Shown here piece by piece: positions 19,765 to 51,360 of a stretch of 64,000 nt of DNA. The stretch is from contig KZ538330.1 of the NCBI GenBank assembly GCA_000934665.2, positions 1 through 64,000 of the forward strand, written 5' to 3'. Under the pieces are notes generated by a model. The model did no database searches. It saw only the letters and a program-made list of their open reading frames with translations, and was not told where the DNA came from. This DNA comes from Catajapyx aquilonaris (lineage: Eukaryota). The position numbers were made by a program, and so were the translations under genes. The first letter of the stretch is position 1, and each line of letters opens with the position of its first letter.

Positions 19765-22700
19765 CTAACTCTGAGACGATGTGGATGAGCATGAAGAAAC
19801 AGAGTCAGACTTCTTGTGGGATTTTCCTGAGGCCTTCTTTTGGCTCTTCACCTGAATTTTGTCCTGGACCTTCTGCACCAGATCATTCAACTCGTCCTAT
19901 TTGAAAAGAGGGGCAAATATTAATCGGTTTTGCTTAAGAGGACTATGAAACACTTGCTCAAAGTGTGGGATACCAACATTAGATATAATCACATATTTTG
20001 TTTCATGCTGTGCAAGATAAAGGTAATGGTACCCAAGCATAAATAGGTGTGGAAGCAAATGTTCTGTGGAGAGAAAGTCAGGATGTTAAGATAGAGTGAG
20101 AGAAAAACTGACCAAGGTATATGTGTAGAGAAGCTTGCACCCTTTGGACTGTTCCTTCCTGTCAGCCAGCCAATCAACTGCATGTGGCAAGCAGAAAGTT
20201 GAGTCCTCCTGGGAGCAGACCATCATTGAGAGGTAGAGGTTGGCCCTGCAAGTCTCACACTCATATTCCACCTCATCCTGCTGCTGCCCCCTAGATGTTC
20301 CCCCACTCCCACTCGATGCTGCTTGCTTCTTCTTCCCAGTACTGACACTGATCTTCTCAGTGGCCTTCAGGTTCAGCTCTTGCAGCTTCTTTCGCCATGT
20401 CACTTCCTCTCTGCGTAGCCTCTGCAGCATTGGCAGCACTTGTTGCAATACTGGAAGCTGGCTGCGGCCATCTTGCGCAATTCCTAGGACGAGGCGATCA
20501 AGTGAGAACACACTTGGCTCGCAGCTGTCACGTATGTCCCGGAATACCTCCTCTGCTGCCCACAGCCATGACGGACGTGCGAAATACACACTCTCCGACA
20601 CCAAGTATCCAGTGCATATGGTGGATGTGAATGCACGAGGAAAGACAAGTACGAACTCGCCAGGATTCTGTACCAGTCGTGATGGAGACACACCATGTGT
20701 TACTAAGGAAGAAGGTGGAACAGCTGCTGTGTCTGATGGGAGCCAGATGGCATTTCCAGACTTGCAGTATCGGGGCACCAACTTCAACATGGCAGATCTG
20801 AACACGTCTCCCTGTGACTCCGGGACACCATACCACACCTTGCTTGCTCCAGCATGAAGGTACTCAACCCATGGTAGGGCATGGGGGTCACGATACCAGC
20901 AACATGCAGTGAACAGCATGCCCACATGTAGCGTTGGAACTGTAACCCCCATTACAGGACCCATGCAACGTAGGACTGATCCTGGATTATTGGTCAGCAC
21001 TTTGAGGTTCCATGGGTGTCGTGCAAATGGACTTGTCTTTCCACATGGAAAACCATACCCCCATACACCTGAATCAATGGAGCCTGAGTGAACGCATACA
21101 TGATGGGATCGATCAGTCACGAGCCGCCAAAACTCAGCTTCAGCCTCTGTAACTGGGGCCTCTCCAGTTCTAAACCACATGCTCATTGTATTGCGTGCGA
21201 TACGATAAAATGCGTTCAAGGGCATAGTGCGGCCTTTAACCACGCATTCCTCAGACTCATCCTCTGAGGATTCATCATCCGAATCGGACTCTTCCTCCTG
21301 CTGTGACTTTCGTTTCCAGCCAGCCTCAACTTGGTCTAGCAAACGCTCACGTTCTGAAGGACTGAGTGTGTCATATGGTAGGAGATACTTGCAATAAATG
21401 TCATCCAACTTTGCCACGCGGTCTTGGGCAGCTTTGGGAATGCGCATGTAATCTGCCACACGGACCCACCTCTTCTTCTCTATCACCTCCTTCAGGCCAC
21501 CAAAGTATTGCACACTCTGGTATAAGCGAGGGAGGTCTACCTCCATGCCTCCAATCTAGAGGGAGAAAAATGCAAGGTATTCAGACAATGGCTACCCAGT
21601 CAGTGCTTCAGGCACATGCATCATTACAGAATCTGACGGACCAAGTAAAAACCCCGTATATTCGAAAATCAGGTAGATGGAGATACAAGGGCAGATCGAT
21701 AAGTAACGCAAACAATTTAATTTAGGCAAAAGTTTAATAGATAGACAAAACTTAAGATATACATGGCGACCTTCAATCCTTTGGCTATTTTTCAACATAT
21801 GAACCGTTCTGTTGATGCATTTGTCCCACTGTGGTACATCGTTAAATGTGCCATGTTTTTAGATCTCCTTTTTTTTGCCATAAGACCTGTTTTACTGGGC
21901 GTCCGGGACAATGCTGATCAGTAATGTCTTCTCGATCCTCAGAAACGGCTTACACCATCTTGAAATGTTGCTACGGTCCAGGCATGTGTTCCCATACACT
22001 TACGTCATGTCCATGTGAATTTGGGTGGGAGTTTCCTTGCGCCCACAAAAAAGCACAGCAGCTTAATGCTCAATAAGGGTGGGTGCATTCACCATCTTTG
22101 CTGGCTTGTTCTCTTTTGATGCACTTGGGGGCACCCTGATGCAGATGTGTACAGACCTGACCATAAACTGAGCGACTTTCGTCTCTTTTCCCCCTTGAAA
22201 AAAGGCCCTATGGAAAAAAAAAACTGAGCTCTAAAAACATGGCATCTTTAACTATGTACCACAGTGGGACAAATGCATCAACAGAAATGGTTCATATGTT
22301 GAAAAATAGCCAAAGGATTGAAGGTCGCTATGTATATCTTACGTTTGGTCTATCTATTAAACTTTTGCCTACATTAAATTGTTTGCGTTACTTATCAATC
22401 CGCCCTCGATAATGCACCACTGCACTCCTCTTTGCAAGCCACACCTGTTGGTACAAAGCCTGTAACTGTAGGAGCAACCATTGCAAAGTTTTGGCCAATT
22501 GAAACATGCACTTCCATATACGATAATGGAAGCAAAAAGCCTCAAACGTGAATATCTGGAAATGACAAAAATCCGAGATACAGGGTTTGACTTGGGCCAC
22601 CAGAACTCGACATAATCACTGCCATCATAAAATTTTCAGTAAAGCATCCATTCCTACTCACCCAAGGAGGTTGCTTCAGGGAGATGTTTTGAGTGCTAAG

Positions 22701-25700
22701 GTATTTCCTGATGGCTGTCATCTCTTTGACATTTGGTCCCCAGCGATGCATCATCTTGTGAATGTACTGGTTGTATGCAGTGAAGCGCATGTTGTCATTT
22801 ACCTTGCATTCAGGTTTGAAACTGGATGGTGGGACAATTCGGCATAATCCAAATTGCTCTGCCAGAGGCCTCACTTTGTCAAAATATTCCAGAGGATCAT
22901 TGAACTCCTCCTCAGTTGGAAAAAAAGATGGGGCCTCTAACATCGATGCATTGGATGAAGCTGCTGCAGTGGCTTTTGCAGATCCAGTAAATTTTGTGGT
23001 TGCAGTGGCCTTCGCTGCTGCTGCTGCTTTTTCTGCCGCTGCCATGGCAGCAGCTGCAGCCTTGCTGGCGCGACCTTTTGAACCTGCTGCTGCTTTCCTA
23101 GGAGGTAGTGGTGATGGAAGCAGAGGTGGAGGTGGTGATATCTCCTTCTTCTTGGTTGCAGTTGAAGTTGAGGCAGTAGCAAAGGCATTGGTAGATGCAG
23201 TGGTGGATGTTTGACAGGGAGAGGTGGAGGTATGGCAGGAAGAAGTGGAAGCCACGGGGGCAGGAGGCCGGGTCACCAGCTTGGCCTGCATGACCAGTCT
23301 TGGGGGCACACCACCCTTGCCAATGGTCCCTTCCGTGCCCAACTTGAGAGCCAGGCCCAATCCTTGCCCCCCTGCACCCACCAGACCACTGCCACCGGCT
23401 GCCTGCAAGGGAATGTAGAATAGTGGCCCACTCCCACTGCTCAGGCCATCCGTCTGGGTACTGCACTCCATGCTATGCTGAAGGGAAGAGCCCACTTCTG
23501 ATTCCAACACAGTGTATTGGCCTTCCATCATCTCGTCAAGATTTACCTGGAAAGAAGGTACAAGTTTCAGACGAGGCTGTAACTTTTGCTGTGGATTACT
23601 ATAGAGTTAATCAGATTTCAAGACCATTTAGCACACTACTGCAATGGCATTGTTAGATATTACAGAATTTTAGCATTTGATGATGCACCCAGTACTGTAC
23701 TCTAGCACAAACTCATACTCTGTCCACATACATCCTAGCAAAAGTGCCACACAAGTAGAATCCCCACCTATTATCACACCTTTACCCAATTAACCCTTTG
23801 CAAGTGCATACTGCTGAAGAATTTGCAAAAAGACTTTCCATTCCCTTCATACTGATGGGACCTGTGCAATGGCCATTTCCCAGGTGCCAACTGCATTTTC
23901 TACCCCGTCAGATAATTATTCAAATACTGAAGACTCCAACAAATTGTAGAGTGCACTCATGAACAAAAAAGCTACATGAACTAAACAAAAAAGGTCTTCC
24001 TAACCTGGACTGCAATAGAGGTGCTGCTGACATTCTTGGCGAGCAGATCTGCCGGCAACTGAAGCACTGCATTAGCCCCTCCCTTATTGGCAGCCACCAA
24101 TGCCCCAACCCTCACCCCTTTGGAATCTTCTCCTTCCCCAAGAGTAGCCCCAAAGTGGTGCAAGGCAGGTTTAGTGCCGCGACTCCTGAATGGGGTGTGC
24201 AATGGAGAACTTTCCGGCTCAGATTCAAAGGCATACACACTGCTCTCGTGTTCTGGAGAGAATGGGGCAGCTGTGGAAGTGGAGGCCGTGGTGACATTGG
24301 TGCTGACAGTGGTGGTGCCTATTGCAGTGCTGGTGTGGTGCAGATCCGTGACTGTGGTAGGCTCCCTCCGGTGCAAGAAGATGGACTTGCGCCCTACCTG
24401 TCTTAGGTCACTTTCTGAGGCTGACTTCCCTAGATTGCTCGACATTGTGGTAGTTGGGGGAGATGTGGATGGGCCATCCTGAAATGAGCCTGTGCGGACT
24501 TTCATCTGCCGCCACTGGGCTGTGCTACCCCTTTCTAATGGTGGGACGCTCCTTTCCCTTGCAGTAACTTTTTTGGGCTCTGGATTATTAGCCTTGAGAA
24601 AGAGAGAAAAAGAAGAAAACATTAAGATATGGTGAGTGCAGCAAATACAGTATTTAAAGGTAGGTTGTAGGCTTTACTTCTGTCCTTACATCTACTAAGC
24701 TCCTTTCCAGCATGAAAAGGTTTTTCCGTACCTTTGGGGCGTTGCTAATTGGTATGCTGCATGGTGCACTATCCTCATCACGTGAGCTGCTCCGCAGATT
24801 CCGATGACTAGGTGACCCTGGAGGTGAGTCAACCATGTTCATGGTTTTTCTCATGGCAGCAATGACAGCACTGCGGTCATGCTTCTTTTTTCTGGCCACA
24901 GCAGCTGGTGACAATGGCTTGGGAGGAGGCCCTTCAGCAGCACGTCGCTTACTTGCCTGCCGAGTTGAGGTGGGCTCATCCTTTTTTGCTGTTGCACTAG
25001 GTGCCATTCTGAGAGGAGCTTGCTTGTTGTCTGCCTTGGTTTGCAATTGAGATGGTTTTTTTTCAGGTGGAACTAGCTTTTTGGGTGGTGGGGGAGCTGG
25101 CTTTGGGGCTGGTTTCTTCTGCTGTGTTTTCTTAGGTGCAGAACGAGCCATGGATTCTATCCTTTCTGTGAAGTACACAAATTCATCTGCATAAACCACT
25201 GTACAGTACCAAAGTACCATGTCGTCTCCATTATTCACACACAAAAAAGACCAAGAGGAGCCCAGATAATTTGATCTAGATCATGCAGAAGCTCAAAGGA
25301 CAGGAGAAAAGGAAGTGACAAAAATAGGAACTTAGGAATTGGACAAAGGAAGTGGAGTGAGTGAGAGAACCCAAGCAATATTATGACATGCAAATGACAT
25401 TTTGACATCTTATGCTCTACCTCTCCTCTCCATCCTAGGCAAGTCCAGCAAACTGTCAACTGACAAGCAATCATCATCTGCATCATCGTCGTCATCATCA
25501 TTGGCAATCAGCTTCCTCCCAATTAGCTCCAGATATATAGCGGCAGCTTCTTTAGTCTTTCTGGTGGGTCTCTTTGAAGAGAGAGATGGTTCAGGAGACT
25601 TTGTGGAAGGAGCCGGAGGTTGCCGAGTGGGAGAAGGCGAGCGTGGAGTGGAAGAACGGTGGGTGGAATAAGGAGGGGAGGCTTGTGATCGGGTCTTCCT

Positions 25701-27431: not shown

Positions 27432-27639
27432 TTTTCCTTCCCTCGAAATCTTGACTAATCACTTAACTTGCTCTCATAATCTAGATCATTCCTTCCCTAG
27501 AATGAAAGTAGGAATGTCACATTTACAAGATCAAAACCATTTCAACTCCCCACATGCAGATTAATCACTAACATAACTGTAACATTGTTTTGTGCAGCTG
27601 ATCCAAACTCCTATCTTTTTTCATTAACTTGAGCAAATA

Positions 27640-28826
27640 CAGTTGACTCCGGATATGACAGCCTCAGTTATTACCGACTTGAATGGCTGGTCCCGGCATA
27701 CTTTCATAACACAGTGCGTATTTTTACTTGTGATATAACCAACGCATTTTCACCTCAACTAGGGTATAACACACCATTTTTTGGCCCCTCTGCACAGGAA
27801 AATGTGCTGTTTTTTTATTATTCAACTTCGATGCGCAGGAGGGCAGAGAATACTTGAGGGGGGTGATTTTCCCATTCTGTCACTGGACTAAGCTACTCAA
27901 AATCATACTTTTTCTGGTATATTTGGCAATAAGAAGATGGCAGAAGAAAATTAGTATTTTTTATTATTCTGACTAATTTATGGATGAGCTAATTTTGCAT
28001 TTTTGTGGATAGATTCATTAATAAATGCAGTAGTGTCCATTATAAGCATATGGAGAGCAGAAAACTCGTGCTTTGTTACAAAAGTGGTGATTTGGCTATA
28101 ACAGACCTCGGTTATAACACTTTTCCCCCTGGCACCTCGAAATCTGTTACAATAAAACTTCTAAGTCGAACTTCCCTCAGTCGGAAGTTCTGTATAAGTT
28201 GATGAAATCTATGATCTTGGTTGGTCACAATGTAAAATAATAGATAATAAACTTCCCTAGCTCAAATTTCTATAACTCAAAGCTCTCCATAACTCGAAGT
28301 GCTGGCAGGGCCTTACGATGGGATGTCAATGCATTTTCAGTCTCCCTAAGTCGAAGTTCATGTTGGCGAGTCCGGAAAATTTTCTCATTTCCCAGCCGAA
28401 GGGTCGAGAGTGGGCCACATGTACAGAAAAGCTCTTTCCTGATCTCCGTCTACCAGAATGACTCATGCCATGGAATAGTGTCAAGTCTTCGTGTGTGGCT
28501 GGAATCCCAACCAGACATACCACAAGAAGTGTTTGACTCGATTGTAAGAATACATTGAATCCTTTATTAAGAGTGACAGCCGATCTAAGAGTAGGCAAAG
28601 TTCCATGTTTTTTTTTTAGAACAAAACAATGAGGAACATTGTAGTGTGATGTGACAGTTACTTTTAAGTTTTGAAGACCTTGTCGCTGGATATAAATGTA
28701 GGCTTCCTTATGTGCTTAAAAAATTCCAAACTTGTCCAACTTGAATCTTCTATAACCGGAAAGATTTTTTCCAGTCCCATGGAGATTCGACTTATAGCAG
28801 TTTTACTGTATATCCAGAGTCAACTG
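27640..28826. mobile_element. pogo/Tigger-like composite MITE in the Jarid2 5' intron
   Basis: TA-CAGTTGACTCCGGATAT...ATATCCAGAGTCAACTG-TA, with a second nested end TTTTACTGTA at ~28801-28810. Confidence 0.65.
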
Positions 28827-29569
28827 TATTATTTACTGATGATTCAATTATGCTAGAAAAATCCCAGGTGCCTTTTGCCCTACAGAAAATTCTTTTACGG
28901 CACACCAAAACATATCTGAGGCAAAGTAACATGTTTTCTGTGGGCTGTTGGACTGCATTGGCATGAGAAGAGCATGTCATTTTTCAGAGTCCAGAAAGTG
29001 TCAAAAGGAAGTACAAGAAGCAGTGTCCTGCCTCCTTCCCCTCCAAAAAGCAAGAATCCCTGGAACCCTCCTGCGTGTGTTGGTCAGACGGAATGGGAGA
29101 GGTCATTCCCCCGCCCTCCTTGTGTTTATATGTGTGTACCTATCTCGTCCCCAGTCCTCTGAACGTCAACCCTTCATGTGTGGGCGTCGACTGCACACCG
29201 GGCCAACAAGGGTGGGCCGTCGACTGGGCACGTCGGTCTTCCTCCGCCGCTGCAGGGAGGGGCAGTCCAGCTTGCAAGTTGACAACACCTTCCAGGCGAG
29301 AGGCAGGCACGGAAGGAAGGCAGCAGCACAATGATCTTCGGGTCGTCGCTCCCCCTTCCCCTCTTCCCCTTCCTTCCCTCTCCCCCCGCAGCTGCCTCTC
29401 CCTCTTCCGCCTTCCCTCTCCCCACCTCCCTCCCTCTCTCCCCCCCTTTTTCAATGAAAGGGAAGGAGGAGGAGGAGGAGGAGGAAGAGAAAACCGACGC
29501 ACCTGGACACCCTCATCTACGCAGAATTAATTCAGACCACGATTCAGACTGAAGCCAATGTTGACTCAC

Positions 29570-29690
29570 TGGTCACTGTTTTTTACACGTTCTGAAACAT
29601 GATTGCATGAACTCCCATTTAAAGTTAAAGACTTGGCGCCACTGCGGAGGATAAGATCAAGATGGCGGCCCCCACATCTCGCCTTGTGTG
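29570..29690. promoter_or_regulatory. Compact bidirectional promoter region between Jarid2 and mRpL33/DAP3, with a YY1/Pho-type motif
   Basis: CAAGATGGCGGC at 29658-29669 matches the YY1 consensus. A strong minus-strand donor GTGAGTC at 29569-29563 suggests a non-coding Jarid2 first exon ending at 29570. The surrounding sequence is CpG/GC-rich. Confidence 0.55.
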
Positions 29691-29757
29691 AATCCCACCA
29701 ACCAACGAGGCCGCGAGGGAGGGAAGGTTGGCTGCTCACTGGGGAGGTGGTCGAGCG

Positions 29758-29952
29758 ATGTTCTTGACTCGGGTGCTGCTGAAAAAGACCAAGTCCCTGA
29801 AGATACTGGTGTCCCTGGAGAGCCTGGTGACGGGGCACAGGCGCAGTGCAGTCAGGCTCAGGCTGGCCGACAAGCTCGAGAGGGTGCTGTGGGACCCGTA
29901 CGTCAGGGAGCAAGTGGTCTACAAGGAGAAGAAGAAGCTCCGAAGCCTGTAA
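29758..29952 (+). CDS. mRpL33: 39S mitochondrial ribosomal protein L33 (bL33m), intronless, 64 aa
   Basis: MFLTRVLLKKTKSLKILVSLESLVTGHRRSAVRLRLADKLERVLWDPYVREQVVYKEKKKLRSL*. Length, the MFL...KSK-like start, RLADKL...DPY and the KKxRSL end match metazoan MRPL33. Confidence 0.93.
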   Translation: MFLTRVLLKKTKSLKILVSLESLVTGHRRSAVRLRLADKLERVLWDPYVREQVVYKEKKKLRSL

Positions 29953-29987
29953 CCCTGCATGCGATTCCCTTTATTCAGAGACACACC

Positions 29988-32900
29988 ATGATGTACAGAT
30001 TGATGAGCAGGCGGATCCTCATTCATGCAACCCCGCTGCAGCGATTACTTTCTACCCAGACGTCTGCTGTTGCTGCTAATGCTGACTGTCGCACTAGTCA
30101 GAGTGACCCGGTATGAGTGATCACAGTGGCCTTTGTTTAGGATACAAGTTTCAGAGAAGTACGTGCCTGGATTTAACACTGACAGACCATACGCATAGGA
30201 CTTTATCCTGACCCATTGTACCAAAGGTTTGCCCTCAGGGTTTTACCTCCTGCAATGACACAGTAATGAATTATTGTACAAGGGACTCACCAATAAATCT
30301 TATTAAAATCCACTTTCTCTCATTTAGAGACAGCACACCCTTCTACATGAAGCTCGCTTCTACCAAATCCCTGATGAGATCAGGCAGCATCTCTTCACGC
30401 ATGGAGGCCTGCCCAGAAAGTTTGTGGATCACATACAACCTTTCCGAGAGCTAAGCCTCATGGTACGCAAGCCTGCCCTGGAAATCATGTCTGCCATGAG
30501 GCTTGCTTCTAAAGAGAGGCCTGCAATCAAATATGTGATGTGTATCCTTTGTTTCTTTAATAATGCCACAGATTACAGTGCAATAAAACCTTAGCAGCTA
30601 ATAGATGGTCAAATGGGAAATGGGAAGACGTTGACCCTGGCACATGTGCTTCACTGTGCATATGAATCTAACTGGATCCTGGTCCACATACCCTGGTGTG
30701 AGTTATTTGGAGTTTGTTTATTAGTTTACAATTATTTACATGCATGTAGATATAGGCTACAAGATGCAGGTGTGATATACTGACCTACATTGAGGGATTG
30801 TATTCATGAGGGCCAGGCTTTAGGGTATGTTTTTGTAAGCGCTGTTGACCCAATCAGGAGACGATGTCACTCTTGCATCATGTGTCCATAATTTGTTTTG
30901 TCTTGCATATTACAAACGGATGGGCATTATTTTTACCCGAAGTAGCAGATATTTGAGTTAAATACTTTGCCTGGATATTTGAACATTATACAACCGGAAC
31001 TGGGAGACTGTTATTTGCATTACATGGAAAACAGTCAAAAATTTTCGAACACTGTAATACAAAATGGAAGATTGTAAATTGAGTTACTTTTGTCCAATTT
31101 TCCATTGAGTTTTGCATTTCAAGAGAAATGCATGTAGCATGAATTGTGTTGTACAAAAGTAGGATAATGTACTGTTGTATAGACAAATACTCTTGTGAAA
31201 TGATACCAATAAATTCAATTTCCAGTGCCTAACTGGATGCGCCACTTTAAAGAGGTGGCTCCATCTGCTACAAGCCCTGGAATGGTGGATCATCCTTTGG
31301 ATGCTGCCCTCTGGCTTCAACACTTTCGCTCCCAGAATTCATCTAGCTTGCAGAAACTGAAGGTACCTTCCATATGAGTTGATGTTACAGTCTCCTTTTA
31401 CTACACGCATTTACTTGACAGCTGGTGACCACACGTCAGTATGAGTGGAGCCAGCGAGAGTCCACAGAATCAGGAGTGCCTCTGGATCACTTGGTTGAGT
31501 TTGGGGTTGCCAGGGCCAAGTTTGCATGCCAGTGTGTGTCTGCACTTCTGGGAGAGCTCTGTGAGCAGGCATCCTTGGGAATGATCCAACTACTGGTAGC
31601 TGTGGATGGTGCAAACGCACTCTTCATTGACAAGTCTCGTGTGCGCAGAGAGGACAAGAGTTATGTGATACCCTCGTTCATGACCTTGCCCATGGCCTTC
31701 CACTCCATAATGCAGGGAAACTGGGTAAGTGTTTGGGTAGTTTGCATGATGTGTGAATTACATTTTTAGGTTTCTATGCAAATGTTGATAATTACTGAGG
31801 TTTTAAAATATAACTAGAAAAACCCTCGCTACACTCGCATTTTTTCTATGGCGCGGGCGTAGCATACCACTCGCTTTGATGGCTTTTTCTAGGCCTACAG
31901 CCTGCAGTGCCTACCATATTGTTAATCACTTCGGATTTATAGCCAACGATGATGCCCATCCCCCAATCATATGCATACACCCCCACCCGTTCCTCCTTGC
32001 ATTCACATATCCTTGATTCTGTACCCTGCGACCCATCTCCAATCCCACCTTTGCTTTCCATTGGCTGGGAAATATGCATCTTCCCACCTCAACATACCAA
32101 TACCTTTTGAATTTTAAAATACCCCAGTTATTGTATGAACAGAAATTCACAACCTCTACCGCTTCTACTCGCATGCACTCGCACATGTGTCTAAATTATA
32201 TGCACACTTTCCGGCCACGTTTTTCTATATAACTGCTCATAACTCCCCCCCTATTATAAACGTCCATGGAACTCTGCAGTGTTTGTATTAGATGATCAAA
32301 ACACTGGTTTCATTCTCCCCGACACTTTCTTTTGACGTTTCGACCTGCCTGGGTTCAGAGTCCATGTAGTTGGCACCACTGATAAACAACATCCCAACCT
32401 AGCCTATGTTCGGTTTGTTTACGACATTCCAATTCGACCATTCCTCCTCTCCCCCTCCCCTGGTGTGAGGTCACCGTGAAGACATGGGTGGAGGATGGTG
32501 GAAGGGTAGAGGGGTGTTCACGGGAGAGGAGATGTGTCCTCGTTCACGTCCAGCAAGCGACTGTGGCGTTCCTTCCACCCATTGCGCATGCTCGGAAAGG
32601 GGGCCAATCGGAGGCGTCATGGTAACAATACGTCCAGGTAACAATGGACCGGGGCCAATGGGGAGGTGGCGGTAACAACAATTTGGGGGCTTATACACAC
32701 ACCGCAAGCATTTTAATATTATATAATGTATATATTATTATTATGTAATGCCTTGCTTCCTCAGTTTACTGCATAGTGTACTGAACAAAATCTGGAACAC
32801 TGGTCATATTTGCAAAATTTGGATCCCATTTCATGGTACAGTGCTGGACATATTAGCCGTCGCTGAATGTTTTTTTCCAGCGACGGCGGCGGCGGGGTTA

Positions 32901-33569
32901 CCTGGCAACCCTGTCCGGCGGGCCAATTCAAACATCAGCCCATGGAGAGCGCTTCCATTGTTGCCACTGTTTACAAATCGAGTGAGTGACGCGGACGACC
33001 CAGCGACGGGTCTCTTCTGCCTGCTCACTCACTCACTCGATTTGTAAACAGTGGCAACAATGGAAGCGCTCTCCATGGGCTGATGTTTGAATTGGCCTGC
33101 CGGACAGGGTTGCCAGGTAACGCCGCCACCGCCGGAAAAAAACATTCAGCGACGGCTAATTTGTCCAGCACTGTATACCTAATGATCTCCATGATTGGCT
33201 AATTAGGCATCAGGTTAATAGTTTATGACAAGAGAGTAATGATATTACTACTACACACAAAACTTCATCTTGCAGAACAATGGAGTGGTGATATCAGTAG
33301 TGGACCAGCTGGCTGAACCTTCGCCCCCTCCCCCTTCCCATCTCCCATGGGCACTACTGGGAGAGCATGGATTCAAACACTTGGATCCATTTATTCCTCT
33401 GGAAGTCCCACCCTACACCACCAAAGAGTTGGAGAGCTGCTTGGACTATTATGATGATAGGATGTGGTTGCAGCACCCAGGTTCAAAGACTCCTGAAGGG
33501 CGCAGGCAATATGCATTTCTCTCAACACACAATCCATTTCGCTTGATGCAGCTCACCTATGCCTACTAG
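29988..33569 (+). CDS. DAP3: 28S mitochondrial ribosomal protein S29 / death-associated protein 3
   Basis: Exons 29988 (or 29979)-30110, 30328-30541, 30605-30697, 31226-31362, 31422-31724, 33276-33569 (TAG). Arg-rich presequence-like N-terminus, RTSQSDP, LMVRKPALE, P-loop YGQMGNGKT, LVAVDGAN, GFKHLDPFIPLEVPPY, FLSTHNP. AATAAA at 33582-33587. An upstream coding exon at 29662-29685 is possible. Confidence 0.93.
30542..30604 (+). other. U12-type (minor spliceosome) GT-AG intron in DAP3
   Basis: 5' splice site GTATCCTTT; branch-site-like ACCTTAGC at 30588-30595 close to the AG; no polypyrimidine tract. Removal restores KYVMY-GQMGNGKT. Confidence 0.85.
31812..32730 (+). mobile_element. Possible non-autonomous Helitron/Helentron-like (HINE/DINE-like) element in a DAP3 intron
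   Basis: ACTAG start with a subterminal hairpin (GCTACACTCGC...GCGGGCGTAGC), and an ACACAC plus AT-rich 3' end; no TSD seen. Confidence 0.35.
32839..33173. mobile_element. Tc1-like foldback MITE
   Basis: TA-CAGTGCTGGACA...TGTCCAGCACTG-TA; near-complete palindrome with ~140-bp arms. Confidence 0.85.
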
Positions 33570-33730
33570 ATTTTGTAGAGAAATAAATGTGCTTGTATTG
33601 GATGCAAGACTGACTTTCATGATTTAATTATCATTTAATTGTGATGTCACCTGCAATTCCAGTGCCTTCGACAGCAGACAGCACAAGCAATGTATTGGCC
33701 CTAGCAAAATATTTTGCTGATGCTCATAGC

Positions 33731-34399
33731 CAGTGGCGTTGCTAGGGGGGTGCGTAGGGTGCAGACCACACCGGGTGACACCCTCCAAGAGTTCAAAGGG
33801 GGTGACACCCAAGTGATTGTTAAAAAATTATTTCCTCATTTTATATCGCCTGACATTCATTGATATACAGGGTGGATCAACTTCAAGTGTCGTTTTATAA
33901 CGGCGATTAATAGCAGTGATTTTGCGACGACGTAGCAGCGACGTGTAAAATGACCCACTTCGGCACCATCGAAAATATTAGCTGCCAATAGCAGCACACA
34001 CTGCTGCTGGGTTGACCTGGAAGAAAGTAGGTGCACACATGACCTGAGATGCACCTGGGTGAAATGCCTTCTTTGCGGACTGCCGGATTGGCATTGGTGC
34101 CGCATGTGGTTGCACTCGTTGCAGCAGGTTCATTACATGTACGCTAATATTGGCAGCTAATATTTTCAATGGCGCCGAAGTGGGACATTATTCACGTCGC
34201 TGCTATGCCAATCGTAAAGCGCTTCTATAGCCATTATAAAACGACACTTGAAGTTGGTCCACCCTGTATGTGAGAACTTCATTAGTACAAAACAATAACC
34301 AAGTATTCTGTACGGTCGGGCATGGGAGAAGGTCCTGGCCCCTGGGCCAGGGGACACCACGAGTTGCTGCACCGGGTGACAACACTAGCGACACCGCTG
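33731..34399. mobile_element. hAT-like MITE carrying a nested mariner-type MITE
   Basis: CAGTGGCGTTGCTAG...CTAGCGACACCGCTG with an 8-bp TSD CTCATAGC/CTCACAGC (1 mismatch). Confidence 0.75.
33868..34266. mobile_element. Tc1/mariner-type foldback MITE (nested)
   Basis: TA-CAGGGTGGATCAACTTCAAGTGTCG...CGACACTTGAAGTTGGTCCACCCTG-TA. Confidence 0.85.
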
Positions 34400-35802
34400 C
34401 TCACAGCAATAACAACAGGAGCAGCCAAGGTTGCAAGAGTCTTCATATCATAAGCTGTATTACATTACAGCAGGGCCTGCCTTTACCATCATGCAGTATG
34501 GCCACATTATTCTCACCTGTAAGTTTGATCCCCTTGATTTGTTCACTCCAGGTCATAACACAGAGGTCAAAATTTCTGATGGGGGCTGTGCCGTTTCATT
34601 TGGGTTGAAGCAGAGACTGACATCACTCACTGGCCAATTCTGGCATGAATTGTCACTACTAAACCAACAAGTGAAAATGCTGCATAGAAATATATTGTCC
34701 AGCACTCGACATCAAAGTTTGCTCTTTCTGTTAACCAAGATGAACTAGCATAATTCCAGTGCAGACCCATCACATTACTATGATAACAGAGTTCAGGCTT
34801 TGCCTAGTGGTGGAATTTTTGCCAGTGCATCACAATCTTGATGTGACAAATCAATAGCAACTTAACTCATCCATAAGATAGAATTCTCGCCACGATGCAG
34901 CATGCAGCCTTGGTGTGCATTTCAAATAGCCTGATCATTCCAGCATTCACAGGCATGGAAAATACTCATTTTGAGAAACTTCTCCAGGATCAAAGTATAT
35001 AAACAACATGACCCAGCTACACTCAGCTAATCCACAAGTTCGGTACATGAGTGGTCAGGGATTTGATAAAGAAATAACTTTTTTGCCTGATCACAGCAAA
35101 CACATAGGATGGCTTACTTTTTATTCAGGCACAACAATAAAGGGGCTAAGAGTCCATCTATCGAGATTTGCAGCAAGGTGTTGGTTATGTACATGACTAT
35201 GTATAAGGTCTCGGCAGCAAAACAGGTGTTAGTTGCTCCCTTGCGAGAGAACCTTGGTCAAACATTGCTCCACCTACTCCGCTGGCTCATCTGTCTTGAA
35301 CTTGCCTCTGTAGAAGGGGATGTATGTTACTATCACCTTCCAGTCAGTAAAGTACAGCATCCCCACAAATGCAGCTCCACCGTATGCAGCAGCAGTTGGC
35401 ATCCTAAGGGAGGGACAATAATTAAGTCACGCAAAAAATGTTATATGCATAAATGTACATAACGTGAAATGTTCGTGTTTGTGCAATGAATATTATTCAT
35501 GGTATTGTCACGAGGAAAAGATAACAGAAGAGGCTCTCAAATTCCATAAAAACATGTCAATAACAATTAACACAATTCAAAGTATAATGTAGAACGATTC
35601 GATTTTATCTTGACATGTGCAAGCTGCTAAACATGTTCCAAGACATCTCGGATAGATGTAAATGAATGAATAAATGCAACTGGTAGGTCCTTCTGGGGCC
35701 AGTCCTTGATTGGAGCAGTATTCCACAACTGCATTAATCTGCGTTAAGTGTTTTATGTCTTTGTTATTCTTACCACCCTTTACAACTTTTGCATAATGTG
35801 AG

Positions 35803-38959: not shown

Positions 38960-41900
38960 TTAGTCCAAGACAATCACATCCTTTGGTTCATTTGCCGGTG
39001 TATGCAGGGACAGTGTGCTTTTCACAACAGTTTCTGGCTCCTTGTTCAATGTCTTTGGCAGAGCAGTTTCAAGAACCATCTTTGGGGAGGAAGTATCTGC
39101 CCTTTTAGCTTGCAACAGCATTTCTGTCAATGTTGCTTGCCCTGTTCTTGGAGCCACTGTACCATTTTTCGTTGGAATGCTAGTCACAGGAGTTGTCTTG
39201 GCTAAGGCACTTTCAAGTTTATTAGCTGATGAAGTCTTGCTTGGTGTGGTGACTGGAGAGTTACCCAAGGTTGAAGCTGGTGCCAGCAAGTTTTTCTGCC
39301 GTTCCTCTGCCGTTAAAACTTTGGTGAAGTTAGTAATTAGTGGTGTTGATGGTTTCCTAGCCATTGGACTTCCACCTCTCTCGGATGTTGAATTGGTCGC
39401 AGTTGGCACCTCCTTAACGTATTCCCAGGTAGCAGGCCTGATAGACAACTCTTCCTTTCCAAGTTTCTTCCGGATATCTTTGTCAACCCACCAGCACATG
39501 GTAGGCCACACAGAGCTAGCAGTAATTTCAGGTGTAGGTGGCTTGCACCACTTGGCCAGCTCGGTAATCTTCCCCCTAGTGGTCTTGAGGCTGAGGGGCA
39601 GGGAAGGAGCAATAGAACCATTCTTCTGATGGAGTTGCCACCATTCACAGAATTCGTGTGCCACAAATGATTTTTTGTGGGGGTTCCCATGGACTAAATC
39701 AACAAGAAATGGGAGTCCATCAATAGGAAACTCCTTGCGCTGCTCTGAATTTGAAGTGGATGGGATTGTAGCCCTGCCTGGAGGGCTGGTGGGTGGAGTG
39801 GTTCTGTCAGCAGTAGGGGGAGATGGTGGTGGCAGTGACTTAGATGTGGAGATGTTATCTGCTGTGTCGACGCAGATGACAGCCCCAAACAGGTTTAAGA
39901 TTGCTTCAGCCTTGACATTCTCCACTGTAAAAAAAAAACACCCATTACCATTTGCTAACACTGATGTAAAGTACAAAAATGTTTCTTAGCTTGATGACAT
40001 GCATCTTTTTAGAATTCACATGAACCAAGAGTCATTTTTGCATTGACCCAGTTATGCCGGGAAAAGTTTTTGTTGAATTTCTGAATGTTTTTTGTTTCTA
40101 TTAGATCATATTAGTTCCCAAAACACAAAAATCGAGATAAAACATTTTTCTGAATGCTTCTTTGCGACAAGGTGGATTTAGAACGGTGGCTCCTCTCCCG
40201 GTTTTTTTTGTGCAGCCCATCAGAAAAGCAAAAGCGGGTTCAAATTTTCTCCGCTAGAGCACACTTGCGTCGACATTAGGTCGAGGCTGAGGCCCAGGTG
40301 TTGGTAAATATGTTAACTTCTCTACTTTCCACTGAAGCAGTCTATGAGTTTAGGCCTTGTCAAGCGTCTATGGTCTCAAAGATTAGAGAAGAGAAGAGAG
40401 GCCTATTCACTGTTCCATGGGTGGTCGACCTAGTGTCGATCATCACATGCTCTGTCGGCTGTTTTCTAAGCTGATTTTGCCTTCGAGAGGGGCTTCACGA
40501 ATAAGCAGCTATTTTGGCCGGAGAGGAGGCACCGTTGTAGCTCCACCGTGGTTTGCGAGAAAATGGCAGTTCCCTATAATTATGGGATGATAGGAAAATG
40601 TAACCTAGCATGGCTATAGCAGTTGTTAATTACATTACCATGGCAACAGTGACATTCAGCAATATCCATAGTTTCATAATATCACCAATGATTGATTGTT
40701 GTCGATTGGATTACCACGGAAGCAGGCTGTGCAAAGAATGGGTTGTGACTGAGTAACAATCAACAACAAGCAAGGATTGTTGCAACGGTTGCCATGTTTA
40801 TCAATTGCCATGTAGTCTCGTTTTAATTGCATGGATTCATTAAAATACAGTTCAACAAAGCGTACAAAATCCACACACATACTTCACTTGTCCAAATGTG
40901 GGTGCATTTGCCTCTTGTGTTCCCCCGAACCAGATTTCAACACTACTCTCAGACAAGGAAAGCAAAAAATATGCCTATATTTCCCCGTCGACATCATCAT
41001 TCATAAGTTTTCTAAGTATTACAAACAATAAATAACTCATAACATTAATCAATATTCGAGAATTAATTACTAATCATATTCGGAACATGAAGGTGCAGCC
41101 ATTATTTCCTGAGTTAAAATTCAAACACCTGTATCTTAAAAAGCTGAAGCAATATTTGAGCAGGTTTGAACTCGCATCGTTAGATGGTACTCTCCTGAAG
41201 CCCCCGTGACTGCAGCCAGTTCTTTAGCAGCAGAAGTACCAGCGCAAAAAAATTAAAATATAACAACTGTGCTGGTGTTCCCTATAGGGGACACTCGGCA
41301 TATCTGGGTTAATGAACAAATATGGAGTGATAAATATCTATCAAGTTTCCTATATAAGGGAGATTATACGACTTCTACATCTGAATTACTCGGATTCCTA
41401 AAGCAAGTGCCCAAGCCACTAACTTCTTGCTGTGGTTTCTATGAAACTATCACTCAAAAAGATGGAAACAATGTTGCATTGAAACCAGATGCAAGAGAGT
41501 CTTCATCTTTTTGAGCAATATGTACTCCACTTATCCGGGGGTTTCATAAGCTGTGGTTTCAGTTACCAGCAGTTTGAAAATATTTAATAAATATTAAATA
41601 AAGACAGTAAATTTTTAACACCAAAAAATTAGGCTTTCAGAAATTTTACTTCGTTAATTTTGCATGCACTCACCTAGTTCAGTTTAGAGGTGTATGCCAC
41701 TACCAGTAATGTTTTCATTGAGCGCTGCATTCAGCAATGACAATTCAATGAACAAAGGCACTACACTACATGTTGTTCAAATGACATCAATTTTGTCACA
41801 CTGACACTCAAAAGTGGGGTGTCTGCCCTGCAATTTCACCCCCCTCCACATGCACCAATTACACCGCAAATGCAAACATGCAACCACAACTCAAAACAAA

Positions 41901-44900
41901 TGACTGCACTAATGAAAATGTCTTCAGTGCACAGCCACTCTACATCAGCTACTTTTAGAGAATACCACAAATGGTACATAGAGCAAGTTCACTTAGCTAT
42001 GTCACATTTCACTACATTAGGTTGATAATATAATGTAGCACTCAGCTCACCTGGTCCGAGCCCAATCCAAATGCATCCAATGACTCGGGGTCGCACTTTC
42101 TTGGCCTTTGCATTCTTTTGTGCTAAGAATTCCTCTTCCTTCAGCTTCAGTCTTTCCTGCAGGTCACCCCCTTTTCCCTCTCCTCCACTATGATCATCTT
42201 CAACATCACCACCTTCTTCATCACTCAGGTATCCATGCGGGACAAAGAACTCATTGTCCACCTCGTAACCAGTGTCATCCATCTCCTCCTCCTCCCCGTC
42301 TGACCCACTCAAGCTTTCCCCAGGTTCTTCTTCCTCCCACTCATCATCAGAGTCCACTTCATAGACCAACAGAGTTGCGTCCTTTCCCAGTGGACGACGA
42401 GGACCTATAACCTGATGATTATTGATATTCAGGTGAGTTAGTAGGTGTGCATGTGGGTGAATGTTTGTTTTTTTAAACACATGGCTATGAACACAATTGT
42501 TGTAATAGTGCTTCATTGGCAGCATAAATGTGGCAAAAATCACCAAACTCAAGAGTACATGGCAATGCAGAAAATGCTGTTTGAATGTTGGAAATTCTTC
42601 TTCCGTGCTGAACTGATGCATATTTGGGGTCATAATGTCCGCGTGTCACCTAGCCCGCACCAGCTGGCTTAGATTTGGGGCTTTCCAAAAAAAAAAAAAA
42701 TATGCTGATTTGGTGGTCATGTGACCACAGCAGCCATTTTGATTCAATAATTTTGTGTTAATGGCTGGAAAGCAATATTATTTATCACGTTGAAAATCAT
42801 CAATACTCAGCGATTTCTCTGAGTGATCGTCTACTGCTCTAATTTACAAATGAAAATCAAGAAATATAACAAAAGTCTGGCAAGCCAGGTCAGAGCCTGA
42901 GACATGCTGTCATCTGTTGTTACAAAAAATAACCACTATTTTCAAAGCAAGCCCATGGTCTTAGAGGGCAAGCCCAAGTCTACAGACATGCTGCCCTATG
43001 TTGTAAGAAAAACTAACCATGCCTACATTTTACCCAGAGGCACATTTTCGATCTAAAAATATAACAGTCACAAAAGGGCTATATCAGCTTGCCGGTCTCT
43101 GAAGGTTAAGGGCTTATTTTTTATTTGGAAAATAACATTGCTATGAACATTTTGATATTTCTGTAAGAAAAGAACTACCTGAGGTCTAGTGATGACATAT
43201 GAAGCATTTTGCTAAAATTGGGGAGGGGCTGATTCCAAAAAGAGGTAGTGTTTCAGATTTAAATTAGTTTGTAGGCATCATCCACAAACAAAAATCAGTG
43301 CTTCTATGGCATTTTCAGGCTGACATATTTCTGGTATACGTTATATATATTTTTGACACTTAGGTTTTTATATGAACTCTTATGTACTCAATGCCTTACA
43401 ATTAATTTTCCCACGAAATTCCCTGGCAGCTGAACCACAACTTTTGTCAAAAATGACTCAGTTGCAATGGAATTAACTTACTGGTAATTAAAATACCATG
43501 ATTGTACAGGGTGTTTCAGAGTCACGGGTCAAGCGCGCGCGGGGGTGAGGAAAAATCATAGGTGGCGACAACCCCGGTCGGTTTTATAAAACAATAAGAA
43601 ATACGGCAGTAATCAATTTATTTATTACGGCCGTACGGCGTACGTCACATCCTACTTTCTGCTTGAACTGACAGTGAGGGGTGCGGAGTGACAAATGCTC
43701 TTGCTTTTAGTCCTTGAACCTGGGCGACACGGTGGCCGAGTGGTTAGCGCCCCAGCCTTCCATCTCTAAGGTCCCGAGTTTGATCCCCGGACCGGACAGA
43801 GGATACTTATGTGGATAGAGTTTCGATGGGCTCTCTCCGTGTGCGCGTGGGATTTCTCGGGGTTCTCCCGTTTCCTCCCACTATCAAAATCCATCACATT
43901 ACAAGCAAATGATTAAAGTCGGTCTATTAAAAGATGATCCCCTAAAAAACCCAAGGAGGCTTATCACGGGGTATCCATTATATTATAGTCCTTGAACCTG
44001 CTTGAGCAGCTTTTTAGCCTTGCGGGTTGCACTGAAAAGGCGCTCTCATGTTATACCGGTAGGGTACTGTACAAAGTAGCGTACTACTGTACAGTGGTGT
44101 ATTCAGTACCTTGCCGGTGTAGCAGGAGAGCGCCTTTTTCAGTGCAACCCAAGGCTAAAAAGCTGCTCAAGCAGGTTCAAGGACTTCAGGCATTAGCATT
44201 TGCCACTCCGCGCCACTCACTTATCAGTTCGAACAGAAGGTAGGATGTGACGTCACGCCGTGCAGCCGTAATAAATAAATTGATTACTGCCGGATTTCTA
44301 ATTGTTTTATAAAACCGACCGAGGTTGTCGCCACCTACGATTTTTCCCCACCCCCTCGCACGCGCTTGACCCGTGACGCTGAAACACCCTGTATATGGTG
44401 ACTCATGCTAATAAAATCCCACTGAAATAAAAGCCAATGATTATTTCTCAAAGCCACCATTGGTGGCGGGAGACATCAGGGTAGGTTACAAGGTTGGCTG
44501 TGGGAATGTGGCATTTAGAGTGGGAGTCTGTCTCAGGACAAGAACCTACCAAAATAATGAGCATCTACCCTACTTGAAAGTGGTAGCCGTTAGCAGTTCA
44601 GAATCCCATTTACCTGCAAATAGTTCTGGCCCCAGTTCTCTTTTTTTTGTGGCAGGAAGGGGGAAGTTGTCATGAAACAGAGATTTAATAATATTTCTAC
44701 AGTGATAGGTGCACTGGTGTAAAATCTCCACATCACAGGCACTTCAACACATAACAACAAATTGTCAATTTCACGAAGGAAAGCAGACTATCTATCATAT
44801 TCCTCACAAGGCTGAAAAGGCATGAAGTGACTATCAACATAATTATATCTAACCTTGCTTCTCTTACGCCATGAGCCCCAATATGGTGGACGCCTGTTCT

Positions 44901-47900
44901 CACAGAACTGCAAGAGCTTGGGGGCAGGCATCTTGACAGAGGTTGGTGCTTCTGCCTCACTCCACTGAGGATCATCTTCATCAAGAATCTCCACATCTGG
45001 TGCAGGAAAGAGAGTGCGATTCGATTGTCCAGGGGTGTAAAGACCTGTGCGAACTTCTTCTAAGTAGAGACGGGAAGGCAGGATTTGTGAGAGAGCTTTG
45101 TCAAGCTCACATCTGCGTTCGGGGGAAAACTTGGTGCGGCAAAGTGGTGCCAGTTGCATGTCTGCTTTCACCTAGGTTAAAAAGTTATTTTAAAAAGGTA
45201 CATTAGCATACGATAGGTTCCACCCTTCTAATTATGATATATACCTGAAAATCCATAAAAGTGGCTTCAGCTGGAATAATCTTGACCTCTTCCTCCTTGC
45301 ATATTGAGTTTTTCTTCTGAAAAAAGCTCACAAAAGAGGCAGCAGCCTTTGCCTTCTTTTTCTCCTCCTCCTCTTGCTTCAGCTTCTTCTCCTCCTTCTT
45401 TCGTTGCTCCTCTTCCTTTTGGCTGCGTTTTGCCTCCTGCAATCGTCTCTTCTCCTCTTCTTTTTGTTTCTTCTCCTCCTCCCTTTTCTGCTTTTCTTCC
45501 TGTCGTTTCAGTTTCTCCTCTTGTTTTGCACTGCACAACCCAATATTACTACAATGTTCAGGGGAATAAATTCAGTACAACTTACTCCAACTCAGCCTGT
45601 TTCTTCTGCTTCAGTTCTTCTTTTTTCTTGCGCTTTTCTTCCTCTGCCCTAATCTTCTCTTCCTTCTTCTTCTGCCTTTCCTCCTGGAGTCGCTCCTTTT
45701 CCTAAAAATAGTCAATGTCATGTTTCCACACACTGAATGCTTTTGATGCAACTGTAACAATAAATTTTGCTATTGATTTCAGAATAACTTTGTAAAAGCA
45801 CTTGCACCCTACCACTTGTCACAGATATACCTTACTTTTGCACTCCTTGTTCAGTGCAATTACAACACAAAGAAAAAATAACTGGTCATCATCATCATGA
45901 ACAAGCCACTGCCAATTTAGTGAAGGCTGTCCTTGCTGGAACCTGCAAGCTACTATCTGTTTATTTAATATAGAGCCCTGTGTTTGACTCGTAACAACTC
46001 CCAGGCAAATGAAAAAAAGATTACATTGTGCTCTATTACACTCAGAATTTTAAAATTATTGTTTTAGTCAGTTGAATAGAAAAGGACCCAGCCCGCTGTC
46101 TGGCGGGAATAGACGGCGATACTTTTAAATACGTTTAAAATTTTTAGTGTAATAGAGCACAATGTAATCTTATCACACACATTTCTGGCTTGCCGTCGAT
46201 GCATTCGCGATGTAATTCGGATTATAACAGCCGAGATAACAGAGGTGCGCAATTAACTTAATTATGATTACAGAAATGGCGATCTCAATGTTTCAAATAT
46301 ATCATTAGATAGACAAAGATGTGCACTATCCAGGGTTCACAGGTGGATTTTTTTGGCCTCCTGAAAGTGTCATAAAAAAATTCACTTTGCGGTGTAACGT
46401 CAGAAACTAGTCAAAAAATGACACATTTCCACCTTCTTTTTACGATAAAAAATTAGAGACTGACGATAGGAAAACAAGTCTCATGTACGTAACATGGATT
46501 TAACCCTGTAATGCCACTAATCTAAGTAATGCCCACTGGGTCATATCTGGCACACCATTGAGTGCAATTTTTATATTTTCTGTAAGTGTGCCAAATTGCA
46601 CTAAATGGTGTGCCAGATATGACCCAAGGGGCATTACAGGGTTAAACAAGCTTTCTAACGATACATACCATTATTTTTTTGGATAATATGCCTGGGAGTT
46701 GTTACGAGTCAAACACAGGGCTCTATATTAAAAAAACGGATAGTAGTGTTCATGGCACTCCCTGTGCTGATGTTGTAACTTATTAATAAGCTTTACTATG
46801 TCGCATGGCCCACCTAGATAGCACGAGAAGCACAACGTTTGAAATTTTGTTGATAAAAAAATCTGACAGGAAGGTTGTTTGCCATAAAATTTCTAATCAT
46901 CAATGTCACAAAGTTTATCCAGTGCCATTACATTCCTCCATGCATTGTGTAACAAAATTTATGCTTTCACCACCTTGCTACAAAGCTCACTAGGAAAAAT
47001 AATTTCACAGACCTTGCGTCGGTCCACTTTTTCCTGATATGACAGCCTCCGCCTTTTAGGTGGTGGACATCCATTTGCACCACTTGCTGGGGTACAGGGA
47101 GTAGAAGTGGAAGCAGTGGATTTGTTGGCAGATGCTACGCTGCTGGCAGACGAAGTGCGTGATGAAGGACTGGATGTCCGAGGAGTCACCATCTCACAGT
47201 CACTATCCATCTTATCCACCTCAATTTGCTCTATATTCTCCACCTCCTTCTCCTCTGCCTCATTGTTTCCAGAGGAAGATGACACAGTGGGAGACTGTCC
47301 ATTTCCATGACTTAATCCATCACTGGTGGATTTCTTCTCGGGGGTGATAAGACTTACAACAGCAATCTGGGTAGTCTTACTAGGTGTAGAAGGTGCTTGA
47401 GTTTCAATTTTTTCCACTGAAGAACCATTTATGTCAGTTTCTGAACTCGCTTTTCTCTTGCGACTATCAGTAACAGCTGGTGATGCTGGGCTTTCCACCA
47501 ACTTAAATGGCAACATTGCTGGAAAACAAGAGGAAAACTTCACTTCTTTGATCCTGTACATCAAATGCACGATTTCTTGAACAGTAATTTTGAAACCTTG
47601 CTTCATTAACTGCGATTAATATCCTGCCTCCCTTGCAACATCATAAGATTGCACAGTTACACCTACCCCTGTTGTGGACATAAGGAAGTCACCTACAGGG
47701 TACCCGGTGAAGAGGGTAGGGGATGGTACAATATGGTACAATATGGTACAATACAACAGGATGCCATAATATATGTTTCACCTGTTCTCCACAAACTCCC
47801 CCTACTTCAAAAAAAAAGGATGGGTGAGAAATTCAACAGGGTAACCACTCTACAGAACAGGTGTGTAGGCAGTGTGCAGGTTATTGTGGAACGAGAACTG

Positions 47901-50930: not shown

Positions 50931-51360
50931 CAATTTGCCACTGAGCACTGTGATTCATCCAGGAGTGATGCAATGCCATGCAGTTTATGCGGATTAGTGC
51001 AGGCAATTAATCTGTGCAGGGAGCTCGTCGGAGGGACCGTTCCACACGTGATTCCACTGATGCCATTGTCCTGTCCGCCCCCCACGTCCGTCTCCCATCC
51101 ATCGGCCTCGACTTCGCCCCCCCATTCTGGATAAGCAGAATGAATGGGAAGCCGAACCAGCTGCCTCGTGTACGTGTGGCCAGATGGCGCCGTGTTCCAC
51201 TGGGGTTAGAGCAGTGCTCACCTCGAGGGCCATCGAGCGGACTGGGGGCGAAACTGGCTGTAAATAGAGATCAGCCGAAAGCCGCACACCTTGAAGGGGG
51301 GCCCTTATTGTGAGAAGACGAGAGGGGAAGAAGAGCAATAAGAGAGGGAGAGAGAGGACA

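Follow-up and report, generated by a model that had tools for sequence, protein, structure and literature searches.

Introduction

Dicistronic messenger RNAs (mRNAs), in which one processed transcript carries two unrelated open reading frames (ORFs), are, judging by the Drosophila catalogue, established in arthropods. Crosby et al. 2015 (PMC4528330) give 159 dicistronic pairs in FlyBase, equal to 2.5% of Drosophila gene models, and in 45 of the pairs neither member is produced from anything but the dicistronic form. Among the FlyBase pairs, mRpL53-CG33155 has an 8-nt spacer and yields mRpL53 only from the dicistronic form, as stated in File S1 of that paper (PMC4528330). Here we analysed a 64-kb stretch of DNA (positions 1 to 64,000 of contig KZ538330.1, read on the forward strand; hereafter the window), in which a complete ORF for the mitochondrial large-subunit ribosomal protein bL33m (gene mRpL33) lies 35 nt upstream of the start of DAP3, the gene for the small-subunit protein mS29. 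We consider it reasonably probable that this locus is a dicistronic nuclear gene encoding bL33m and then DAP3/mS29 on one mRNA, and mRpL33-DAP3 would then add a case to a type already known.

As in Drosophila mRpL53-CG33155, two unrelated ORFs at this locus are carried on one processed mRNA and separated by a short spacer (8 nt in the fly, 35 nt here), and the upstream cistron specifies a small mitoribosomal protein. Unlike in that pair, both cistrons of the window are mitoribosomal, one belonging to the large and one to the small subunit, with translation of both being putative. In its logic the locus also resembles the bicistronic MOCS2A/MOCS2B mRNA (Mocs2-CG42503), which places two subunits of one molecular machine on one mRNA. 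Whereas the MOCS2 arrangement is described as conserved across distant eukaryotes, the mRpL33-DAP3 pairing was not found outside the window, either in Drosophila or in 12 metagenome loci, and no description of it was found in open-access papers or bioRxiv.

Close same-strand cistrons are also known from operons that are resolved by spliced-leader (SL) trans-splicing. Such operons occur in nematodes and tunicates, and spliced leaders are known in amphipods and copepods.

Results

The RNA data come from a single public run (X1) that contains this stretch, belongs to one study and has no library type on record; its contigs were placed on positions 27500-35000. One X1 contig covers both cistrons (1258 nt, depth 34.7, 0 mismatches). 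It spans 29717-30110 without a break, so that exon 1 as seen in RNA, on the plus strand, takes in the leader, the complete bL33m ORF, the intercistronic spacer and 41 initial codons of DAP3. Further downstream the contig joins 30110/30328, 30541/30605, 30697/31226, 31362/31422 and 31724/33276, thereby skipping introns at 30111-30327, 30542-30604, 30698-31225, 31363-31421 and 31725-33275, all of them bounded by GT..AG. Since it lacks these five introns the contig is derived from cDNA, and the joined introns together with the absence of mismatches indicate that it comes from the same species. Its 5' end at 29717 is the end of a contig and not a mapped transcription start site. X1 cover is absent at 29283-29716, which takes in the promoter side, an upstream ATG and candidate splice donors at 29686 and 29688, and again at 33393-33774, on the 3' end side.

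Two intact, non-overlapping ORFs for distinct proteins thus lie on the same strand within one spliced contig, which is not a single molecule, and RNA continuity over both goes together with the splices of DAP3. A previous reading of the DNA letters (the sequence-only reading) had proposed a shared transcription unit for the two cistrons, and the contig, which extends unbroken from the bL33m ORF over the spacer to the end of DAP3 exon 1, bears this out. Its fallback proposal of a dicistronic mRNA fits this one RNA-derived contig, which beyond exon 1 is spliced like DAP3.

The upstream cistron occupies 29758-29952 on the plus strand and consists of 64 codons followed by TAA (29950-29952), without introns and with the start context cgagcgATGt. 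Judged by its homologues, this ORF is full-length bL33m. A phmmer search of the Protein Data Bank (PDB) matched human bL33m (3j7y_1) over the full length (E 2.8e-8, window residues 1-64 aligned with 1-65), and all 12 matches from a word-indexed protein search were insect proteins named mitochondrial L33 or bL33m, at 55-64% identity and 100% coverage. In a 13-row bL33m alignment that includes the window ORF as one row, 28 columns are invariant; the window protein matches all 28, and its ORF contains no frameshift. The coordinates, identity and intactness that the sequence-only reading had assigned to this ORF were therefore confirmed by the sequence check and the homologue matches, and the positions it gave for the DAP3 ATG and for six short motifs discussed below (the AG of TTCCCTTTATTCAG, CTGTAAC, ATG 29662, GTGTGA, AATAAA and ATTAAA) all proved correct.

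A Pfam scan of the segment 29692-29949 returned no family at E <= 0.001, PF00471 (Ribosomal_L33) included. We give this miss little weight because precomputed PF00471 assignments were present on only one of the 12 insect bL33m proteins, the model being weak on animal bL33m. In the word-indexed search, a collection of 5.8 billion proteins yielded no entry identical to the window bL33m, which is probably unannotated in the gene set of the species. Nor was a fused bL33m-mS29 form seen among 84 representatives at E <= 0.001, the longest of which has 222 aa and whose identity is at most 61%. Within the bL33m ORF we additionally observed an 18-nt tandem duplication at 29793-29829 (2.1 copies, 84% matches), which encodes SLKILV/SLESLV.

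The first part of the DAP3/mS29 coding sequence (29988-30110, plus strand) opens with ATGATG (context cacaccATGa), and the N-terminus that it specifies is rich in Arg and presequence-like. Intron 1 (30111-30327) contains AATAAA at 30292 and ATTAAA at 30302. The remaining exons, placed by the RNA joints in the spliced model, are exon 2 (30328-30541), exon 3 (30605-30697; P-loop region with GNGKT, match to PF10236), exon 4 (31226-31362), exon 5 (31422-31724) and a last coding exon (33276-33569) that ends with the stop TAG at 33567-33569, beyond the end of the RNA contig at 33392. The Pfam scan matched four exon segments to PF10236 (DAP3; E 4.6e-15 to 3.6e-5), and the six-exon model built from the RNA joints encodes 387 aa with no internal stop. 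Daphnia mS29 was the best match in the search with DAP3 segments (49% identity); against it the complete model is 45.6% identical over 353 residues (35-387 against 36-388), and translation from ATG 29988 gives almost the same length (387 against 388 aa).

A sequence scan found neither AATAAA nor ATTAAA in 29700-30291, and a scan of 29700-30330 for 12 types of poly(A) hexamer found none in the spacer. Because AATAAA and ATTAAA are missing from 29700-30291, an RNA carrying the bL33m ORF has no canonical end before the donor of DAP3 intron 1, and since the contig is in addition joined over that intron, such an RNA most simply continues into DAP3. The sequence-only reading had suggested that the two signals in intron 1 could end an mRNA for mRpL33 only; this gained no support, as the contig joins across the intron that holds both. 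Downstream of the DAP3 stop, the first AATAAA/ATTAAA-type signal lies at 33582-33587 (plus strand).

On the reading that we favour, one promoter upstream of 29717, probably shared head-to-head with a Jumonji/Jarid2 gene on the opposite strand, would drive a single pre-mRNA. Its first exon would hold the complete, intronless bL33m cistron with the DAP3 start following 35 nt on; the five DAP3 introns would be removed, and the RNA would end after the DAP3 stop. Translation of bL33m would begin at the first AUG of the assembled RNA, flanked by G (-3) and U (+4), and some scanning subunits would bypass this AUG and reach the DAP3 AUG pair, where A stands at -3. We infer leaky scanning as the main route to DAP3, with reinitiation possibly helping.

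The intervening sequence permits such scanning, because no ATG lies within the bL33m ORF past its start, in any frame, and the spacer holds just one weak ATG, at 29959. This is the only ATG between the two starts, has T at -3 and C at +4, and opens a mini-ORF of 10 codons (MRFPLFRDTP, 29959-29991, plus strand) whose TGA overlaps the DAP3 ATG as ATGA. In two fly dicistronic mRNAs, translation of the second cistron has reportedly been tied to AUG-free first cistrons, to go by the title of a 2005 study by Wall et al.

The 35-nt spacer (29953-29987, plus strand) also contains the acceptor-like sequence TTCCCTTTATTCAG (29965-29978), with its AG at 29977-29978, and CTGTAAC at 29947-29953 overlaps the bL33m stop. 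Upstream of the 5' end of the RNA contig, the motif AAGATGGCGGC (29659-29669, plus strand), which we take to be a putative YY1-like element, contains the ATG at 29662. This ATG opens a candidate upstream ORF of nine codons (MAAPTSRLV, 29662-29691, plus strand) that includes GTGTGA at 29686-29691, and joining 29685 to 29979 would place it in frame with DAP3 (..SRL/RHTMMYRL..). Over both strands (128 kb in all) there are 62 acceptor-like sites that reach the quality of 29978, defined as YAG together with 10 or more pyrimidines out of 11. In quality the motif equals the best of the verified acceptors of DAP3, that of intron 1 at 30327, and both read ...YAG/AGAC. The candidate donors are weak (CTT/GTGTGA, TGT/GTGAAT and AAG/GTTGGC), as is one verified DAP3 donor (TGT/GTATCC).

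The sequence-only reading had combined these elements into a DAP3 first intron that is removed together with a nested mRpL33. None of the 11 joints listed in the X1 contigs, which drop rare forms, ends at 29978/29979, and the contig covering both cistrons passes the site unbroken. Of the earlier interpretation, the single transcription unit with its dicistronic mRNA thus stands on the contig, while the nesting of mRpL33 in a removed intron does not, and the stoichiometry switch suggested along with it is conjectural.

A metagenome scan with the bL33m alignment yielded 12 arthropod-like mRpL33 loci. In five of the 12 an intron follows about residue 15-19, so that exon 1 (residues 1 to about 19) is separated by roughly 200-1100 nt from the exon downstream that covers residues 16-48, and in two of the 12 there is a further gap after residue 48, with residues 49-64 beyond it. 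The window copy has neither intron, which fits retroposition or intron loss, and the arrangement may have arisen when such an intronless copy came to sit in the DAP3 leader. This would resemble retrogenes that borrow a host promoter, where an intronless copy of an intron-bearing gene lies within the transcribed leader of another gene. Unlike retrogenes in host genes, however, the window copy has neither a poly(A) remnant nor a target-site duplication in the 35-nt spacer. A separate observation concerns metagenome locus L001, where an mRpL33 copy at positions 107-316 is intronless, is frameshifted near residue 48 and lies beside an unrelated minus-strand ORF of 378 aa; it resembles a processed pseudogene, and belongs to another arthropod.

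Finally, we surveyed the neighbourhood of the pair. A second X1 contig lies on 29139-29282 (239 nt, depth 5.3, 95 nt of it placed elsewhere), and its boundary coincides with a minus-strand GT donor (gagatag/gtac on the reverse strand). This segment probably represents the non-coding exon 1 of Jumonji/Jarid2, whose minus-strand transcription leads away from mRpL33-DAP3. With exon 1 of that gene placed at about 29140-29282, the interval from there to the 5' end of the RNA contig (29283-29716) would be the presumed head-to-head promoter region. Between the divergent genes lie a CT-rich low-complexity tract at 29354-29448 (period 18, 5.2 copies) and then a GGA/GAG run at 29460-29490; positions 29347-29497 were skipped as repeat in the contig placement. 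The Jumonji/Jarid2 gene itself extends over 20089-23606 and probably beyond on the minus strand, with JmjN, ARID, JmjC and zf-C5HC2 domains. Its protein shares 52-60% identity with its matches, whether these come from insects, scorpions, centipedes or horseshoe crabs, so that the protein collection contains no close annotated relative of this lineage.

Elsewhere in the window the Pfam scan placed Piezo channel exons (4704-16567, plus strand), CAF-1 p150 (38963-45571, minus strand), a pyroglutamyl-peptidase-like segment (51295-51747, plus strand) and a mitochondrial-type ClpP (63673-63999, plus strand). Rfam at the gathering threshold and ARAGORN returned no RNA families or tRNAs in the whole 64-kb window. 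High summed depth at 28002-28754 and 33775-34276, where many X1 contigs align at 90-95% likeness, probably reflects repeats or transposon copies that are expressed from other places in the genome.

Discussion

Several observations weigh against a dicistronic mRpL33-DAP3 gene. Contigs chain overlapping reads and do not stand for single molecules, the depth of this one is given as one value, and contigs, here from one run of one study, drop rare forms and perhaps short side branches too. The scarcity of ATGs ahead of DAP3 is not significant, in that synonymous resampling of the Met-free bL33m sequence gives no ATG in 36% of cases (P = 0.36) and shuffled versions of the 227 nt hold at most one ATG in 15% of trials (P = 0.15); internal Met is likewise absent from six of the 12 insect bL33m homologues. 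Moreover, a first cistron of 64 codons whose start has a purine at -3 would be expected to take away much of the initiation at DAP3. With regard to the spread of the pairing, tblastn at E <= 1 found DAP3 in none of the 12 metagenome mRpL33 loci, a weak test given downstream flanks of only 388-5664 nt. In Drosophila, mRpL33 (X:4B6) and mRpS29 (2R:58E1) are unlinked and lie on different chromosomes (PMC2246290). A second mRpL33 gene could also be present elsewhere in the genome. Lastly, four of the five verified DAP3 acceptors are weaker than the motif at 29978, and only about 0.017 such acceptor-like sites would be expected by chance in a 35-nt spacer (a post hoc test), which hints at a splice that is absent from the contig.

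This motif leads to the first alternative, in which an added isoform is produced by splicing a short exon 1, ending at 29685 (or at 29687 or 29726), to 29979. The bL33m cistron would be removed to give a DAP3-only mRNA, the unspliced RNA would be the dicistronic bL33m mRNA, and the ratio of the two would set their relative output. We regard such an isoform as possible but unlikely. It would account for an acceptor that equals the verified one at 30327, down to the AGAC that follows, and is so seldom expected by chance, and the 29685-29979 join would keep the DAP3 frame. Some monocistronic forms in Drosophila are in fact made by splices that disrupt one cistron (PMC4528330), which is the splice idea of the sequence-only reading in general form. 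On the other side stand the read-through contig, the want of a listed joint at 29978/29979 and the weak donors. DAP3 also has no need of an N-terminal extension: the MAAPTSRL residues are not required because ATG 29988 gives an N-terminus of Daphnia length. The motif could be the live acceptor of a minor DAP3-only form, made by cis- or trans-splicing, or it could be what is left of a former leader intron of DAP3.

Somewhat more doubtful is the possibility that the bL33m ORF is a passenger retrocopy, a mere upstream ORF that damps DAP3, while a working, intron-bearing mRpL33 lies elsewhere in the genome. The window copy is indeed intronless in comparison with intron-bearing arthropod mRpL33 loci, and the frameshifted, intronless copy at L001 provides a precedent from another arthropod. 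The ORF is nevertheless complete, with all 28 invariant columns matched and no frameshift, features that a young retrocopy would share.

A further scheme, which we offer tentatively and hold to be a little less probable again, joins elements of these two alternatives. A retrocopy of mRpL33 would have inserted into a 5' intron of DAP3 that was then very small and now spans 29686-29978, and would have taken the place of the parent gene. Retention of the intron would give the dicistronic mRNA, the only source of bL33m, and its removal a DAP3-only mRNA whose product starts MAAPTSRL-RHTMM. If this were true, a single splice decision on 29686-29978 would set the ratio of a large- to a small-subunit mitoribosomal protein.

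We think it improbable that two separate, overlapping transcripts, with DAP3 expressed from a promoter located within the bL33m ORF or immediately upstream of it, were merged by the assembler. Single molecules are not resolvable in contigs, and PMC4528330 reports that at 45 of the 159 Drosophila dicistronic loci both genes are also expressed monocistronically. A separate bL33m RNA would need a 3' end of its own, yet no AATAAA or ATTAAA precedes intron 1 and the contig joins across that intron.

Least probable is an operon resolved by SL trans-splicing, with the AG at 29977-29978 as the DAP3 trans-splice acceptor. The close same-strand cistrons and the strong 3' splice-site-like motif directly 5' of the downstream one are as in such operons, and SL trans-splicing occurs in some crustaceans, SL sequences of the amphipod Parhyale being given in PMC5111886. 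Unlike in such operons, neither the spacer nor its surroundings contain a poly(A) signal for the upstream cistron, and the contig crosses the site unbroken and bears no leader at its 5' end. Best matches of just 45-64% identity, moreover, place the window no more narrowly than among the arthropods.

Taken together, we favour a dicistronic mRpL33-DAP3 gene, and its interest is moderate in that the products of both cistrons belong to the mitoribosome, one to the large and one to the small subunit. If this reading is true, the locus would be a clean natural case in an animal of one protein from each mitoribosomal subunit being tied to one promoter and one mRNA, and it would offer a simple test bed for the passage of ribosomes from a first cistron of 64 codons to a second. 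In addition, short upstream cistrons such as bL33m are easily missed by gene callers, with the consequence that the genes they represent may be scored as 'lost'.

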